A DNA stretch of 64,000 nt, taken from assembly GCF_988243305.1 (NCBI RefSeq), contig NZ_OZ547136.1, one strand, 5' to 3'. Both the position numbers and the translations under genes were made by a program. Below are positions 2,634 to 26,831 of the stretch, in pieces. The notes beneath the pieces were generated by a model that saw nothing but the letters and a program-made list of their open reading frames with translations, was not told where the DNA came from and made no database searches. Each line of letters starts with the position of its first letter. Position 1 is the stretch's first letter.

Positions 2634-3404
2634 CCAGAATAACCAACTTTATTTTTATGCGGTCTCACCGCACCCCGTGATGTCGCCGGGAAGCCCCGGT
2701 AAAAAATAATTAGCATTAGAATAGTTGCGATAAGCTGCAATAGGCAGAGCCCCTTTTTTGGATTTAATAAGTCCTTACAAATAGAAGGGGTTCTTTACAC
2801 TTATCTAAGATTTTTCCTAAATCGACGCAACTTTACTCGTCACTACACTCACATACAACGGAGGGGGGCTGCGATTTTCAATAATGTGTGATGCAGATCA
2901 CACAAAACGCTCAATTACTTAACATAAATGTATAAGTCATACTTTTGTTTTGGGTGTATTTCAATCTGTTAAAAAGTTTTTCGCTACGATAGCAAGTAAA
3001 AATGAAACAGGAATAATCGAAATGGGATGTTGCGCACAGTTAAAATAACTCACCGTAAATAATCATCTGCTATAAATAATTGCTTTAATGCAATACCCGA
3101 TAAGCTATTTTTAAACAGACACTTACCGCACAACAAACTAATTAAATACAAAGAAAGGCAACAATCAACTTAATGTTAATAAAATGTTTTACATATATTA
3201 ACCACTTGTTTGATATGGAGAATCAGTACATTATTTTCTTATAATTACAGTTGAAATCATATGATCACCGAGAGTGATTGATTAATTGTATTTACTAATA
3301 ATCACACTAATATTTACCTGTTTGACTGAGTTGGGATTGCGTCGATTCTCCATTAGGAGTAAAGCTTTAATGTCACCTGAAGTTCACAGAATAAGGAACA
3401 GGTT
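2634..3404 (-). promoter_or_regulatory. flhDC upstream control region (long AT-rich leader/promoter)
   Basis: ~770 bp AT-rich non-coding DNA between flhD start and divergent uspC; position matches the known flhDC regulatory region; individual sites not resolved. Confidence 0.5.
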
Positions 3405-3833
3405 ATGAGCTATAGCAATATTCTTGTCGCCGTTGCGGTTACACCGGAAAGTCAGCAACTGCTAGCAAAAGCGGTATCTATCGCCAGGCCAGTAAAGGGA
3501 CACATCAGTTTAATTACTCTCGCTTCCGACCCGGAAATGTACAATCAATTAGCCGCGCCGATGCTTGAAGATTTACGCAGCGTGATGCAGGAAGAAACGC
3601 AAAGCTTTCTTGATAAGTTAATTCAGGATGCGGGGTATCCCGTTGACGAGACGTTTATTGCCTACGGTGAGTTAAGCGAACATATTCTGGAGGTTTGTCG
3701 CAAACATCATTTCGATTTGGTGATTTGCGGTAATCACAATCACAGTTTCTTTTCGCGAGCATCCTGCTCGGCGAAAAGAGTGATTGCCTCAAGTGAGGTC
3801 GATGTGCTGTTAGTTCCACTTACGGGAGATTAA
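3405..3833 (+). CDS. uspC: universal stress protein C
   Basis: 142-aa ORF MSYSNILVAVAVTPESQQLLAKAV... Confidence 0.9.
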   Translation: MSYSNILVAVAVTPESQQLLAKAVSIARPVKGHISLITLASDPEMYNQLAAPMLEDLRSVMQEETQSFLDKLIQDAGYPVDETFIAYGELSEHILEVCRKHHFDLVICGNHNHSFFSRASCSAKRVIASSEVDVLLVPLTGD

Positions 3834-3839
3834 CCGCAC

Positions 3840-7195
<3,356 letters not shown>

Positions 7196-15759: not shown

Positions 15760-15910
15760 ATTCATCAAGCAATCAGTTAATCACTTGATTTTATTATCGT
15801 CTGGCAATCAGTGCCGCCGTTCGATGCGTTGCATTCTACTTACCTGGCGCGATGAGTCAACGATATTTTTCACCACTTTTGATCGTTTGCTGAAAATTGC
15901 GCCGAAACGA

Positions 15911-16459
15911 TCACTGATCAAGCAAATCTGCACGCGCAGCGCTCAAATATTGCAACATTGACCACAGAGTCAGTACCGCAGCCACAAAGAAAAGTGCAAT
16001 ACCGGCGTACTCAACCCAAATGTTCGGACGCCACAGCAGCCAGGCCAACGCCACCATCTGGGCAGTGGTTTTCACTTTCCCAATCCAGGAGACAGCCACG
16101 CTACTGCGTTTACCCAACTCCGCCATCCATTCACGTAGCGCAGAAATAATAATTTCACGGGCGATCATCGTTGCTGCCGGTAAGGTCACCCACCAGCTGT
16201 GATAATGCTCGGTTACCAGCACCATGGCGATAGCCACGAGAACTTTATCTGCCACAGGGTCAAGGAAAGCACCAAACCGGGTACTCTGGTTCCAGCGGCG
16301 TGCCAGAAAACCATCGAACCAGTCAGTCACCGCCGCGACGCAGAAAATGAGCGCGGCGGCAAACGGCGACCAGGTGACAGGCAGATAAAAGACCAATACA
16401 AAGAATGGGATAAGGATGACACGGAACAGTGTAAGCAACGTAGGGATATTAAATTGCAT
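15911..16459 (-). CDS. pgsA: phosphatidylglycerophosphate synthase
   Basis: 182-aa ORF with CDP-alcohol phosphatidyltransferase motif [11 protein letters not shown]...[10 protein letters not shown]. Confidence 0.95.
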
Positions 16460-20703: not shown

Positions 20704-21456
20704 TTATTGCAGCAGAAACTTCTCGAGGAACTGGCGGGTGCGAGGCTGCTCGGGATCTGCAAATAACGCTTTTGCGGCCCCCTGCTCGACTATCCGCCCC
20801 TGGTCCATAAAGATCGCCCGGTCCGCAACATCCCGGGCAAAGCTCATTTCGTGCGTCACAATCACCATCGTGCGCTTTTCCTGCGCCAGCTGGCGGATGG
20901 TGTTCAGGACTTCGCCCACCAGCTCTGGATCCAGCGCCGACGTTGGCTCGTCAAACAAAATCACTTCAGGACGCATAGCCAGCGCTCGCGCAATCGCGAC
21001 ACGCTGCTGTTGACCGCCAGACAAACGACGTGGATAGCTGGTTTCTTTACCTGCCAGCCCAACTTTCGCCAACAGCTCGCGAGCGCGCACCGTGGCCTCT
21101 TCTTTCGGTTCGCCTTTGACGATCACCGGCCCTTCAATAATGTTCTCCAGCACCGTACGATGCGGAAACAAATTAAAGTTCTGGAAGACAAACCCGACGT
21201 GCTGACGCAACTGGCGAATCAGCGATTTTTGCTGACTTAATGAACGTGCAGTATCAATAGTGATATCGCCAACGGTGATGGTTCCCGCTTCCGGTTGTTC
21301 CAGCAGATTTATGCTGCGTAGCAACGTGGTTTTGCCGGAACCACTCGGACCGATAATTGCCACTACTTCGCCAGGCTTTACCTCGAGGTCGATACCGTGC
21401 AGCACCGTCTGACCGTGAAATTTTTTCACCAGGTTCTTAACTTCAATGGCACTCAT
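20704..21456 (-). CDS. tcyN: L-cystine ABC transporter ATP-binding protein
   Basis: 250-aa ABC ATPase, Walker A GPSGSGKTT, signature LSGGQQQR. Confidence 0.9.
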   Translation of the reverse strand: MSAIEVKNLVKKFHGQTVLHGIDLEVKPGEVVAIIGPSGSGKTTLLRSINLLEQPEAGTITVGDITIDTARSLSQQKSLIRQLRQHVGFVFQNFNLFPHRTVLENIIEGPVIVKGEPKEEATVRARELLAKVGLAGKETSYPRRLSGGQQQRVAIARALAMRPEVILFDEPTSALDPELVGEVLNTIRQLAQEKRTMVIVTHEMSFARDVADRAIFMDQGRIVEQGAAKALFADPEQPRTRQFLEKFLLQ

Positions 21457-22121
21457 TTTGGTTCTCTCTCCTGGCGATTAAGTTGATTCTCAAAATGGTT
21501 CTGCAACGTCGATAACACTGTCGCCATGATCCAGTAGATGAGCGAAGCCGCCAGATACATGGTGAACACCTCCAGCGTACGCGAGGTAATCAACTGCGCC
21601 TGACGGAACAGCTCCGGCACCTGGATTGTCGCGGCCAGCGACGTATCTTTTACCAGGCTGATAAAGCTGTTCGACAGCGGCGGCAACGCCACCCGCGCCG
21701 CCTGTGGCAAAATCGCGCGACGCATGGTCTGCCATGGCGTCATACCAATACTGGCAGCAGCTTCCCACTGACCTTTATCAATAGAAGAAATGGCGGCGCG
21801 CAGCGTTTCGGCAGCATAGGCGGCAGTGTTTAGCGACAGACCAATCATTGCTGACGGAATGGGATCTAGTTCGATGCCAAACTGCGGCAGGCCGTAATAG
21901 ATCATAAACAGTTGTGCGATGAGTGGCGTACCACGAAAAATAGAGATATAAAAACGCGCCAGCCAGCGCACGGGCCAGATTGGTGAAAGGCGCATCAGCG
22001 CGAGAATAAACCCTAGCAGTAAGCCAAAAAACATGCCGCCGATACTGAGTTGCAGCGTATACCCAGCCCCTTTCAGCAGGAACGGCAAGGAATCAATAAC
22101 CAGTTGTATACTTTCTTGCAT
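21453..22121 (-). CDS. tcyL: L-cystine ABC transporter permease
   Basis: 222-aa polar amino-acid ABC permease; 4-nt overlap with tcyN. Confidence 0.9.
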   Translation of the reverse strand: MQESIQLVIDSLPFLLKGAGYTLQLSIGGMFFGLLLGFILALMRLSPIWPVRWLARFYISIFRGTPLIAQLFMIYYGLPQFGIELDPIPSAMIGLSLNTAAYAAETLRAAISSIDKGQWEAAASIGMTPWQTMRRAILPQAARVALPPLSNSFISLVKDTSLAATIQVPELFRQAQLITSRTLEVFTMYLAASLIYWIMATVLSTLQNHFENQLNRQEREPK

Positions 22122-22135
22122 GAGCGTTTCCGGAG

Positions 22136-23288
<1,153 letters not shown>

Positions 23289-23698: not shown

Positions 23699-23992
23699 AT
23701 GGACAATCATGTAACGACGAGAAATCGAAAAATGATTGAAAATGCGGAAATCTATAATGATTATTTTTCCGATTATTCAGATGCCTGCAAATACAGTTCG
23801 AGTGCGGGAGAGTTCATATGCTTCAACTTTTTTATTAAATCTTATGTTTTTCCTCCACAGCAAGAAGATGGAGGTGTGCCACCTCCTGAAATCACTTTGC
23901 ACCGTATAGCCTCCGTCTCAATGATGGAGCAACAGGCTAATGAGCTGTATAGCATTCTGGGAACGATTCTACAAAAGCGTGAATCGGACTAA
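23699..23992 (+). CDS. hypothetical protein (97 aa), opposite-strand cargo gene
   Basis: ORF with AAGAGG SD 6 nt before ATG in an AT-rich segment; plus-strand hairpin plus T-rich tract at ~24128-24160. Confidence 0.45.
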   Translation: MDNHVTTRNRKMIENAEIYNDYFSDYSDACKYSSSAGEFICFNFFIKSYVFPPQQEDGGVPPPEITLHRIASVSMMEQQANELYSILGTILQKRESD

Positions 23993-24159
23993 TGATACCG
24001 GTTCATTTGCCTGCCCGGATGGGGAAGCAGGATTGACTGCTCCATAAGCAGCTATATTTCTGAATACGAAATACTATCCAGCGATTACATATGGCTGGAT
24101 AGCGGCAAAGATGTTTTCATTAGTGTCAAACCGGCAGAGGACACCACCGGTTTGTATTG

Positions 24160-24414
24160 TTACATCATGGTACTGTCAGTTCCGGGCTGAGCCGGGTCTG
24201 GTTGCTCTGGCTGCGCGTCGGTTTTCGGCTCATTATCAGCATCACTGGCCGCAACTGCTGGCCCAATAAGTTTTGCCAGCACTTCATCAACGTAAGTGTC
24301 GATTTGTGCCTCAAAATCCTTGCGGACCTGCGCTTTCAGCAACTTATTTACTTCACCGGAATACAGTGCCTGTTTTACCAGGTCTTCAGTGACGGTGCCT
24401 TTAATTTCTGGCAT
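24160..24414 (-). CDS. hypothetical protein (84 aa, acidic Pro-rich C-terminus)
   Basis: ORF MPEIKGTVTEDLVKQALYSGEVNKLLKAQVRKDF...; third gene of esterase block. Confidence 0.45.
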   Translation of the reverse strand: MPEIKGTVTEDLVKQALYSGEVNKLLKAQVRKDFEAQIDTYVDEVLAKLIGPAVAASDADNEPKTDAQPEQPDPAQPGTDSTMM

Positions 24415-24449
24415 GTATATCCTCCTTATGCGGGAATAAAGCCCTGCAA

Positions 24450-24632
24450 TCAGGGCTGGGTCGGGTCTTTTGGGAGCGGAGTTACCTGCGCTGTTTTACT
24501 GAGTTTTTCAGCTGCTGCGTCCTCAATTTTGCGGCGAACATAATTTCTGATGGCCTTATAACCACCACTCACCAGATATAACGCACATACTGCCGTGCAG
24601 AAATACAATAAAATAAGCTGTAAAAATGTCAT
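24450..24632 (-). CDS. small membrane protein (60 aa, one N-terminal TM helix)
   Basis: Start at second Met with GGGAGGG SD: MTFLQLILLYFCTAVCALYLVSGGYKAIRNYVRRK. Confidence 0.5.
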   Translation of the reverse strand: MTFLQLILLYFCTAVCALYLVSGGYKAIRNYVRRKIEDAAAEKLSKTAQVTPLPKDPTQP

Positions 24633-24776
24633 TATCCCTCCCAATTATTGACATGGTGTTGACACCGGTAATATCTGTTAGGTAAAAAGGTGCACTGCAT
24701 TTTTTGCTTTGGATATAACGATCTTTTTGCCGCCGGTTTCTTGTTTTCCCTTACCGGCGGCATTTTTTTATCCTGC

Positions 24777-26831
24777 TTACGCGTTATTCACTTCCACCAC
24801 GATACTGTCAATCAGTACCGGGTAAGTCGCATTTTTAGTGATATCGGTCACGCGCAACTTGTCTGCCGTAAACGTGCCGACCGGAGACTGCGACAGCATG
24901 AATGGTGTCCCGTCCTTACCATCAATGACCGGCGTCACCTCAATACTGTTGTTACCGGCAAAACGGAAGCCCAGCGTATGCCATTCGTTATTAAATGCGC
25001 CGAATGACCCCAGCTTCGTGTTCTGCGCCGTGTTTCCTTTGTGATACATCACGTTAAGGTCTGTGGCATCGCTCTGTACGTAGAACGATGCCAGCAGGTT
25101 ATGACCGGCATTTCCTTCCAGAGTAACCCCTTGCGGCAGGGCAGAAACCGGCCAGTACAGCGCCAGTGCGTACTGATTAGCCGTAAGCGCGCCATCGAGT
25201 TTAAAACGACAACTGACAAGACCACCTTTACCCAGCAGGTCCGCACCATTACCAGCATCATGCTCAAGGTACCAGGGGGCTCTTCCTGTTTCCTTGGTCA
25301 GTTTCATTGCCTTACCCCCGCTGGCTCCGGCATCATCCACGATTTGAGCCTTGCCACCTCCGGCAGCCCAACCCTGTGGTGTCAACCGTCCTTCAGACTC
25401 AGATGCCCGGTAAGCAAATAGCGTACTCATCGTCGTGGTGTCTGCGGGTGGCGTGGACGGTTTTGATGGTGTATCAGGTGACGGCTTCTCATCCGGTGGT
25501 GTCACGGTCTGCCCGCGCATCAGTTCAGCCGTGCGCCCTGCATGGAGCATAATAGCTGAGGCCAGACGGTCTGAAATGACGCCCCTGCGTGCCCATGAGC
25601 TGAAATGGCTGTCACGCTGTGTCGAAACAAAACTGCCCTGGGTTCGGGATGCTGCACCGTAATACCCGACAGCCACAATATCCGGGTCTTCCGCCGGAGC
25701 ATTCGTTGGCGTGCTCTGTCCATTCTCATCCGTCAGGAACGGTACAAAGAAAATTTTCTGTGCTTCCTTGCCTTTGTAGCCACCGTATACTGCCTCATAT
25801 TTATCGGTGCCAGCGTTTTTCCAGTAATACGTGGTATCACCGCAAATCCACGGCACCGTGGTGGCATTTCCACTCACGCACTGCGCAGCAAGCGGAGCCA
25901 GGTCAGTTCTGAACTGCTGAACCATGGCCGTGAATAAACTATTATGCTGCTGGCTTCCTGAGGCAAGGTCTGCCTCTCCCTGCATCCAGACCACAGCCAG
26001 AAGTTTGTTTTTCGGGTTTTTCGCCAGCGCGACTTTGGTGCGGCTTACCAGGTCCTGATACAGAGGTTTACCGGCCCCCCAGCGTGAAGAATCAGCGGAA
26101 GCACCGCTGGCCTCACTGAATGAGCCGTCGGCTCCAGTGGTGAATGCTGACCCGCCACGACAACAGGGCACCAGAAGTATCCCGGCATTCTGTGGGATAT
26201 AGGGAAGCAGTTTTTTGGCAATATGCAACCCCTGACCGACAGTCCCGTACTGGCCTTTTGCCAGATCAGCTTTCGGGTGGTTTATCCCGCTCATATCCTG
26301 AACATCATGCAGGCAGTGGTCTGCCGGAATGATGTCGTTGTATGTACACGACGTACCGTTGGGCGTTACCGCACTGCGGCGTGCCAGTTGCTTAATGCGT
26401 GGGTCCGGGCGGTCAAACGAATCCGGTAACGGCAGCCCCTCGCCGTAGGCCATGCCATTTGACTGACCCGCGAGAATGACAACAAAGTAATATTCCGGCT
26501 CTGAACTGCTGCCATTCGTGCTACCGGAAGGCCCGGCGTTATCCGGTGCATTCCAGTCGGAGGGCGTGAGCGTTCCGGCCACGTCAGATGTGATTGGAAT
26601 GATGCCAGTCACGCCTGAACTGGTGATTTCTGCACTGGGATTACCGGATACCGGCATTACCCATAATGGCTCTTTCGTGCTGAAGCGGATCACGCAGTCT
26701 GCGAAGGTGATCCCCCCTTTATTACCCGAAGGGCGGAAAGGGCTTTCAATAAATGCCACCGTGCCACCGGCAACCTTGACTGAAAACTCTCCGGGCATGG
26801 CGGAGAGCATTTTCCACTTGGAGTCTGACAT
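24777..26831 (-). CDS. prophage-encoded SGNH/SASA-family sialate O-acetylesterase-like protein (NanS-p-like) with C-terminal lectin-like domain
   Basis: 684-aa ORF; catalytic block YYFVVILAGQSNGMAYGEGLPLPD, VPCCRGGSAFT, AVVWMQGEADL, RDSHFS resembling E. coli NanS; Pro/Thr linker then ~190-aa beta-rich C-terminal domain. Confidence 0.75.
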   Translation of the reverse strand: MSDSKWKMLSAMPGEFSVKVAGGTVAFIESPFRPSGNKGGITFADCVIRFSTKEPLWVMPVSGNPSAEITSSGVTGIIPITSDVAGTLTPSDWNAPDNAGPSGSTNGSSSEPEYYFVVILAGQSNGMAYGEGLPLPDSFDRPDPRIKQLARRSAVTPNGTSCTYNDIIPADHCLHDVQDMSGINHPKADLAKGQYGTVGQGLHIAKKLLPYIPQNAGILLVPCCRGGSAFTTGADGSFSEASGASADSSRWGAGKPLYQDLVSRTKVALAKNPKNKLLAVVWMQGEADLASGSQQHNSLFTAMVQQFRTDLAPLAAQCVSGNATTVPWICGDTTYYWKNAGTDKYEAVYGGYKGKEAQKIFFVPFLTDENGQSTPTNAPAEDPDIVAVGYYGAASRTQGSFVSTQRDSHFSSWARRGVISDRLASAIMLHAGRTAELMRGQTVTPPDEKPSPDTPSKPSTPPADTTTMSTLFAYRASESEGRLTPQGWAAGGGKAQIVDDAGASGGKAMKLTKETGRAPWYLEHDAGNGADLLGKGGLVSCRFKLDGALTANQYALALYWPVSALPQGVTLEGNAGHNLLASFYVQSDATDLNVMYHKGNTAQNTKLGSFGAFNNEWHTLGFRFAGNNSIEVTPVIDGKDGTPFMLSQSPVGTFTADKLRVTDITKNATYPVLIDSIVVEVNNA

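Follow-up and report, generated by a model that had tools for sequence, protein, structure and literature searches.

The 64,000-nucleotide stretch of contig NZ_OZ547136.1 (NCBI RefSeq assembly GCF_988243305.1), hereafter the window, is part of an Escherichia coli chromosome with a Mu-like prophage. We investigated two small genes at 24160-24632 of the window, which lie on the minus strand in the cargo slot of this prophage. A preliminary description had placed two open reading frames (ORFs) of 60 and 84 amino acids there, directly downstream of an esterase gene on the same strand and in a phage accessory region. All of this was borne out, and the esterase ORF was found upstream at 26831->24777. 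Neither protein had been recognised in that description. However, a homology search assigned the first to Pfam DUF1378 and the second to Pfam DUF826, families that are also found in phage 933W. The features of the locus were as follows.

24632 to 24450, minus strand: DUF1378-family coding sequence (CDS), 60 amino acids, from ATG to stop (ORF list, Pfam, PHROG, RefSeq)
24414 to 24160, minus strand: DUF826-family CDS, 84 amino acids, from ATG to stop (ORF list, Pfam, PHROG, RefSeq)
26831 to 24777, minus strand: NanS-p-type esterase CDS, 684 amino acids, directly upstream of the DUF1378 gene (ORF list, Pfam)
24636-24642, minus strand: Shine-Dalgarno sequence GGGAGGG of the DUF1378 gene, 3 nt from the ATG (read from the sequence)
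24420-24427, minus strand: Shine-Dalgarno sequence AAGGAGGA of the DUF826 gene (read from the sequence)
24659-24769, plus strand: candidate convergent small-RNA gene (sequence, fold, conserved layout, covariation)
24061-24154, minus strand: two hairpins 3' of the DUF826 stop (ViennaRNA folds)

Read along the minus strand, the order was gin (27489→26917), an 85-nt gap, the esterase gene, a 144-nt gap, the DUF1378 gene, a 35-nt gap, the DUF826 gene and the two hairpins, followed by a convergent 97-aa orphan ORF and then com and mom. The prophage encodes Mor, Gam, Kil, a MuB-like ATPase, the gpT head protein, a Mu-type baseplate, a Gin-like invertase, Com and Mom. In phage Mu, com-mom directly follows gin. 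The esterase gene, the two small genes and the orphan ORF were therefore regarded as cargo. The strong ribosome binding site GGGAGGG described for the first gene was read where expected, and GGGAGGG or GGAG was retained in most of 28 intergenic variants. The second hairpin downstream of DUF826 (approximately 24103-24073, −15 kcal/mol, ViennaRNA) was followed by UAUUUCGUAUUC. The hairpins are likely the 3' end of the transcription unit; they were absent from the terminator scan output because their loops were longer than the scan allows.

The identity and family membership of both proteins were near certain. The 60-aa protein matched DUF1378 (PF07125) with an E-value of 9e-32 and 109.4 bits (cut-off 25) over its full length, residues 1-58 aligning with profile positions 1-58 of 59. 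It also matched PHROG phrog_494 (E 1e-32), and RefSeq annotates its CDS as WP_000143468.1, 'DUF1378 family protein'. The 84-aa protein matched DUF826 (PF05696) over residues 1-57 with an E-value of 6e-16 and 58.7 bits (cut-off 25), and phrog_311 with 5e-28. Its RefSeq annotation is WP_001114100.1, under the DUF826 family name. By these matches, both proteins are catalogued members of two uncharacterised phage families and were already known. The identical DUF826 protein was present on at least 1000 contigs, and a profile search of 1.84 billion representative proteins gave only 52 small proteins of the DUF826 type. YbcW and YnfO had been considered as possible K-12 members of DUF826. This was dropped, as the annotation gave YnfO as DUF3950 and YbcW as unassigned.

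The first protein had been described as a single-pass membrane protein with an N-terminal helix, and the topology check agreed with this. The hydrophobic stretch covered residues 2-24, with no charge at the N-terminus. Residues 26-60 were basic (isoelectric point (pI) 10.0, net charge +3.8), with five basic residues after the helix. AlphaFold2 modelled a single helix over residues 2-48 in a linker-fused model. Because the N-terminus is uncharged and the helix is followed by five basic residues, a single transmembrane helix with the N-terminus out and the basic tail in was predicted. DUF1378 would thus be a bitopic inner-membrane protein with a periplasmic N-terminus, and with a basic amphipathic helix and a Pro-rich tail in the cytoplasm. 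The transmembrane segment was strongly conserved, with the motif LYFCT..C.LYL.SGGY. Among 12 diverse members, M1, F3, L9, Y10, F11, V15, L18, Y19, L20, S22, G23, G24, Y25 and R29 were invariant. These near-invariant transmembrane residues point to specific helix-helix contacts and not to a passive anchor.

The second protein was acidic, as had been described, with a pI of 4.2 and a net charge of −8.5, and neither a signal peptide nor a transmembrane segment was found in it. The AlphaFold2 model, based on a 22-sequence alignment, contained helices at residues 10-17 and 20-50, and residues 56-84 were below 50 in the predicted local distance difference test (pLDDT). DUF826 was predicted to be a cytoplasmic protein in which a helical domain of approximately 55 residues precedes a disordered acidic tail whose C-terminal tip is hydrophobic. 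The tail of the window protein was rich in Pro, Glu and Gln and ended in ..STMM. Across the family, the N-domain was conserved, while the acidic Pro/Glu/Gln tail was 0 to approximately 90 residues long and usually ended in MM, MML, TML or TLL. An apparent fusion of the DUF826 N-domain to an esterase C-terminal domain (loci L040, L042, L056 and L064) was rejected, because the pieces were in different frames and represented a recombination scar.

Short ORFs that are dispensable in related phages and lie beside a gene of known selective value could be non-functional, carried along with the esterase block into the Mu-like phage. The substitution rates spoke clearly against this. The median pairwise ratio of nonsynonymous to synonymous substitution rates (dN/dS) was 0.19 for DUF1378 (28 distinct alleles) and 0.26 for DUF826 (33 distinct alleles). 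Between two Mu-like lineages, it was 0.24 for DUF1378 at a synonymous divergence (dS) of 0.63, and 0.21 for DUF826 at a dS of 0.80. The DUF826 N-domains of these lineages shared 83% identity with each other and no more than 65% with the lambdoid copies compared. Both genes were intact in nearly all Mu-like loci covered, with an altered DUF826 tail in L008 and L010. In addition, the Shine-Dalgarno sequences were strong, the transmembrane residues were highly conserved, and the families persisted in at least six different genomic arrangements. These results showed that both genes are bona fide and under purifying selection. Hitch-hiking ORFs are a highly improbable explanation, refuted for practical purposes by the purifying-selection signal.

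The window gene order of SASA/DUF6645 esterase, DUF1378 and DUF826 on one strand was the order in the NanS-p cassette of Shiga-toxin (Stx) phages. Genes orf25 and orf26 of phage 933W (Y10775) and the copies in phage PA28 belonged to the same families as the window pair (PF07125/phrog_494 and PF05696/phrog_311). Both phages also shared with the window the order of the three genes and the intergenic layout, including an antisense promoter and terminator. In PA28, the full order was stx, esterase, DUF1378, DUF826, holin and lysozyme. Whereas the cassette of these phages precedes a holin gene, that of the window is located between gin and com/mom of a Mu-like prophage. It lacked two traits of Stx phages, the location between Q/stx and the holin gene and the DUF1737 N-terminus of the esterase. 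Its DUF1378 was 53% and its DUF826 approximately 42% identical to the PA28 copies of the 933W/PA28 type, and its esterase had a different N-terminal domain.

In tblastn searches, DUF1378 matched 309 phage records, nearly all from Stx phages; the 933W-type DUF826 matched 306 and the esterase 347. All 80 viral loci fetched via DUF1378 showed the esterase gene upstream and that of DUF826 downstream wherever the contig was long enough. These loci fell on two backbones, one Mu-like (gin..com/mom) and one lambdoid (class II holin and lysozyme). Two of the most divergent DUF826 representatives, found by the profile search, also kept the trio, beside holin genes of PF16080 and PF04971. These comparisons indicated that the esterase gene, the antisense small-RNA gene, DUF1378 and DUF826 form a mobile cassette. 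Its slot is directly upstream of the holin gene in the Stx lambdoid phages and between gin and com/mom in the window.

The esterase, a sialate O-acetylesterase of the NanS-p type, consisted of a SASA catalytic domain and a DUF6645 C-terminal domain (Pfam). Its N-terminal region of approximately 100 residues had neither DUF1737 nor any other Pfam or PHROG match, and its identity to the PA28 esterase (approximately 66%) started at residue 94. The esterase body was 87-91% identical to some lambdoid copies. The NanS-p esterase of phage phi24B (gp84) is a capsid decoration protein, with DUF1737 as the capsid-binding domain (bioRxiv 10.64898/2026.04.10.717836). The window esterase's N-terminal domain (residues 1-100; 26532-26831, minus strand) looks like a virion-attachment domain that was swapped to suit the Mu-like particle. 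In locus L068, an IMG/VR contig, gin and an esterase of the window type (99% identity) preceded DUF1378, DUF826, holin and lysozyme genes of the lambdoid type. This contig may be an artefact of assembly, or else a true recombinant of a Mu-like and a lambdoid prophage that arose through the esterase gene common to both.

The elements of a small RNA (sRNA) gene were present on the opposite strand of the 144 nt that separate the esterase and DUF1378 genes. A −35 element TTGACA (24659-24664), an 18-nt spacer and TAAAAA (24683-24688) preceded an RNA of approximately 75 nt (approximately 24695-24769). The terminator had a 10-bp GC-rich stem with arms at 24729-24737 and 24753-24761, followed by seven T residues. 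The fold energy of the RNA was −23 kcal/mol, with a z-score of −4.2. The antisense strands of 28 distinct esterase/DUF1378 gaps were compared together with three units from enteropathogenic E. coli (EPEC) E2348/69. In 30 of these 31 sequences, including the sRNAs PasA and PasC, the layout was TTGAC, 17-18 nt, an A-rich hexamer, 50-85 nt, a hairpin and a U-run. Four of the nine pairs of the terminator helix were changed on both sides. The covariation score was 0.251 against a shuffled mean of 0.158; none of 500 shuffles reached it, and slid controls gave 0.03-0.14. Rfam Esr41 (RF02676) scored 22.2 bits in the window and 28.1 bits at the equivalent site of PA28. As its gathering score is 102, Esr41 was rejected as the family of this sRNA and served as a pointer only.

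The coordinates and strand of PasA and PasC in EPEC place them directly after the esterase gene, in antisense orientation (PMC8550237 table S6). Both are Hfq-dependent and Northern-verified, and have the homologues EcOnc51/52 in enterohaemorrhagic E. coli (PMC8550237; bioRxiv 10.64898/2026.05.13.724894). The window sRNA resembled them in its site directly after the esterase stop, its antisense orientation and its intrinsic terminator. The TTGAC −35 element, the A-rich −10 element, the GC-rich terminator with U-run and the length of 75-85 nt were also alike. However, its 5' half had little sequence similarity to PasA/PasC, and E2348/69 has no DUF1378 or DUF826 genes downstream of them. The gap thus holds a candidate sRNA gene that, by layout and position, is a positional homologue of PasA/PasC. 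In prophage PP2 of E2348/69 (L084, 2367-2813), two tandem antisense sRNA units lay between the esterase and holin genes, the second being PasA. Neither DUF1378 nor DUF826 was found in this interval. The PP2 layout showed that the esterase is accompanied more constantly by the sRNA than by the two proteins.

The preliminary description had taken the pair to be co-transcribed with the esterase. No sense-strand terminator was found after the esterase, where a hairpin is followed by CAAAAAG; the GC-rich hairpin does not serve as the esterase terminator because its T-run is on the plus strand. There was also no convincing sense promoter in the 144-nt gap. Since the gap has neither a sense terminator nor a credible sense promoter, co-transcription is the simplest reading. 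The convergent sRNA gene in the same gap complicates it, and the claim was kept as plausible rather than demonstrated. The sRNA would be fully complementary to the bicistronic transcript and could uncouple the esterase from the pair. The holin and endolysin genes of the lambdoid phages lie downstream of the trio, which must therefore be part of the late transcript. Expression of nanS-p increased by 1-2.4 log upon mitomycin C induction (PMC10462455).

Both families were also found without the esterase. In Mu-like phages of a dam type, the order was tail fibre, tail-fibre assembly gene, DUF1378 and Dam methylase. Some of these phages had an opposite-strand O-acetyltransferase in between, hexapeptide or Acyl_transf_3-like. 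Three dam-type loci also contained DUF826, which lay before DUF1378 in a reversed order. The dam-type examples were located as follows.

L161 and L162/L165, approximately 2640-3700: reversed pair or DUF1378 alone
L166, 5001-6366: reversed pair or DUF1378 alone

In a further 23 loci (L172-L194), an S21-like holin, a signal-anchor-release (SAR) endolysin and Rz/Rz1 were followed by DUF1378, with no esterase and no DUF826. The ATG of DUF1378 overlapped the Rz stop (ATGA) in these loci, as at 4474-5153 of L172. An 804-aa tailspike-like ORF followed DUF1378 in the L172-type loci. A short-tailed DUF826 also occurred alone; in approximately 38 of 63 loci, it immediately followed the lysis genes and preceded the terminase genes. 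The nearest large upstream ORF of a lone DUF826 was Rz in 22 loci and a SAR lysozyme in 16, and in L094, DUF826 followed a LydA-like holin. Salmonella phage Fels-1 had an unannotated DUF826 ORF between Rz-like and small terminase genes (L101, approximately 5000-5160; NC_010391, approximately 15790-15950). Where the two genes were neighbours, either could come first, and three different arrangements were seen. These results showed that DUF1378 and DUF826 are separable, and that each can occur alone and independently of the esterase. Because each protein also occurs alone, after Rz or in other Mu-like phages, no dependence on the esterase was concluded.

This result bears on the possibility that the pair is an accessory of the esterase, or of phage enzymes that act on glycan O-acetyl groups or sialic acid, and serves in their membrane targeting, release or assembly. 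The similar record counts (309 and 306 against 347) would fit this, as would a linkage that held on two unrelated backbones at 40-66% protein divergence. A hexapeptide acetyltransferase, an Acyl_transf_3-like acetylase, a PHROG-annotated sialyltransferase and GT25/GT2 transferases recurred beside DUF826 or DUF1378, and in phi24B the esterase forms part of the virion (bioRxiv 10.64898/2026.04.10.717836). However, both proteins occurred without any esterase in several phage groups, and the esterase also occurred without the pair. The esterase recombined independently, with a body 87-91% identical where DUF1378 was only 57% identical. It is also not obvious what a membrane-anchored protein would do in capsid decoration, which takes place in the cytoplasm. 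Beside a lone DUF826, a glycan enzyme was adjacent in a minority of loci only, and none lay beside that of Fels-1. An association of DUF826 with enzymes of sialic acid or glycans was downgraded, as most lone-DUF826 loci, including that of Fels-1, were without such a neighbour. An esterase or glycan accessory was considered rather improbable.

In all contexts found, both genes were co-oriented with the late operons, and in the non-Mu phages found, they abutted lysis cassettes. The endolysins examined in DUF1378-bearing phages had SAR-type N-termini. The overlap with Rz, the positions just before the holin gene and just after Rz, and the SAR-type endolysins suggested, tentatively, that the pair is a late-expressed accessory at the inner membrane that tunes host lysis. 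It is adjacency to lysis genes, and this only, that hints at such a role. Both genes would be expressed along with the phage late genes. DUF1378 would insert into the inner membrane and contact a larger membrane protein helix-to-helix, as small bitopic regulators such as AcrZ do. In phages with both proteins, DUF826 may partner or regulate it from the cytoplasm. The process modulated would be the membrane step of lysis, namely the timing of pinholin or SAR-endolysin action. A function for the esterase and the exclusion of other phages were both judged less likely than lysis modulation.

Two known systems illustrate such an architecture. AcrZ is a small bitopic regulator in the host inner membrane. 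Like DUF1378, it has approximately 50-60 residues, a transmembrane helix from residue 2-5, an N-out/C-in topology, and a cytoplasmic helix followed by a Pro/Gln-rich tail. The conserved transmembrane residues of DUF1378 suggest binding to a larger membrane protein, as for AcrZ. However, the two have no sequence similarity, and AcrZ is a host protein without a dedicated soluble partner. The lysis-inhibition pair RI/RIII of phage T4 combines a small membrane-tethered antiholin with a small cytoplasmic helical protein. The DUF1378/DUF826 pair is likewise made of one protein with an N-terminal membrane segment and one cytoplasmic helical protein, and in non-Mu phages it likewise goes with lysis genes. 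In contrast, no homology to RI/RIII was detected, and RI has its functional domain in the periplasm, into which DUF1378 hardly extends.

Several points weigh against a role in lysis. The Q-S and Rz-terminase intervals are classical cargo slots, and adjacency to lysis genes is weak evidence there. In the Mu-like phages, including the window prophage, the pair was approximately 28 kb from the lysis genes. Fels-1, with DUF826 alone, had a soluble endolysin and not one of the SAR type. Approximately 38 of the 347 esterase-bearing phage records were without the pair, and prophages PP2 and PP5 of E2348/69 had the esterase and holin genes with no DUF1378 or DUF826. Neither protein was similar to holin, antiholin or spanin families in Pfam, PHROGs and NCBIfam at E-values up to 0.1, and the NCBIfam search with both proteins gave noise only. 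A sequence search of the PDB with both family profiles gave nothing below an E-value of 0.29, and Foldseek found no PDB match for the DUF826 model. When DUF1378 and DUF826 were modelled as a linker fusion with a paired alignment, AlphaFold2 gave no gain in confidence, with a predicted template modelling score (pTM) of 0.22. A direct complex of the two modelled proteins was thus neither supported nor refuted. In the literature on DUF1378/DUF826, no functional study was found and the ORFs were only mentioned as existing. A paper on the Stx-phage region mentions these ORFs and nothing further on them (PMC10462455), and the literature on specific Stx2 release gave no lead on the pair.

Superinfection exclusion or modification of the host envelope had been proposed for the membrane protein. 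In this case, the pair would be autonomous cargo (a 'moron') that serves the lysogen. The membrane protein, either alone or together with DUF826, would block or abort infection by other phages, in the manner of superinfection-exclusion proteins or of two-part systems made of a membrane protein and a sensor. All positions found are known cargo slots, namely Q to S, Rz to terminase, and the Mu-like right end after the tail-fibre genes. In the dam-type Mu-like phages, DUF1378 adjoined O-acetyltransferases of the serotype-conversion type. No hairpin was found in the 85-nt gin/esterase gap, and the window cassette lies downstream of gin without an intervening terminator, so that expression in the lysogen is possible. 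Both genes may occur alone and are dispensable, which is typical of cargo. However, the PADLOC search gave no match for DUF1378, and the sole match for DUF826 was to a coiled stretch of PbeC (12.9 bits, E 0.008), so that no meaningful threshold was passed. The lambdoid copies lay inside the Q-dependent late transcript, and no promoter of the pair's own was evident. The overlap of the DUF1378 start with the Rz stop in one phage group would be unusual for a lysogen-expressed gene. With the genes co-oriented with late operons and near lysis cassettes, the exclusion proposal was not upheld, and lysogen-serving cargo was regarded as unlikely.

The lysis reading can also be stated more broadly. The pair may be a separable two-protein module of the inner membrane that acts late in infection, for example as a new class of lysis-timing regulator in phages with pinholins and SAR endolysins. 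The module would move between lambdoid and Mu-like phages, often with glycan O-acetyl enzymes, and would be uncoupled from the esterase by a PasA/PasC-type sRNA. This combined proposal is doubtful as a whole.

The surroundings of the cassette were also examined. The same right end of the prophage was present in approximately 17 complete E. coli genomes. In the one complete genome checked, it was at another chromosomal site, adjoining cmoM. Differing chromosomal sites fit a transposable phage of the Mu type. In the window, the mom stop was at 22551, and the right end abutted a truncated host ORF adjoining an ABC-transporter pair (22136-22558, 20704-22121). By their translations, the genes there look like dcyD and tcyN/tcyL. 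The lysis genes of the prophage, approximately 28 kb away, encoded a SAR-type endolysin, an Rz-like protein and an Rz1-like protein. The 97-aa orphan ORF (23699-23992, plus strand; 86 aa in the RefSeq version) converges on the DUF826 gene and had no match in Pfam, PHROGs, NCBIfam or PADLOC. It was present only in a subset of the Mu-like prophages with this cassette and was absent from the L003-type lineage. A 7-bp hairpin (AGCCCUG AUUG CAGGGCU; 24437-24457, minus strand) spanned the DUF1378 stop just upstream of the DUF826 Shine-Dalgarno sequence. It was absent from the PA28 copy.

The copy in the window is a routine case of catalogued conserved hypothetical proteins. What the present analysis added was the move of the cassette into a Mu-like phage with purifying selection there, and the finding that the two proteins are separable and esterase-independent. 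It also added a candidate sRNA gene of the PasA/PasC type in the gap as an esterase companion, with its layout in 30 of 31 intergenic sequences. Release of the toxin depends on lysis, and members of the two families adjoin the lysis genes in approximately 300 sequenced Shiga-toxin phages. If the pair does tune lysis timing or the release of esterase or toxin, it would be relevant to the pathogenesis of E. coli that produce Shiga toxin and to phage biology.

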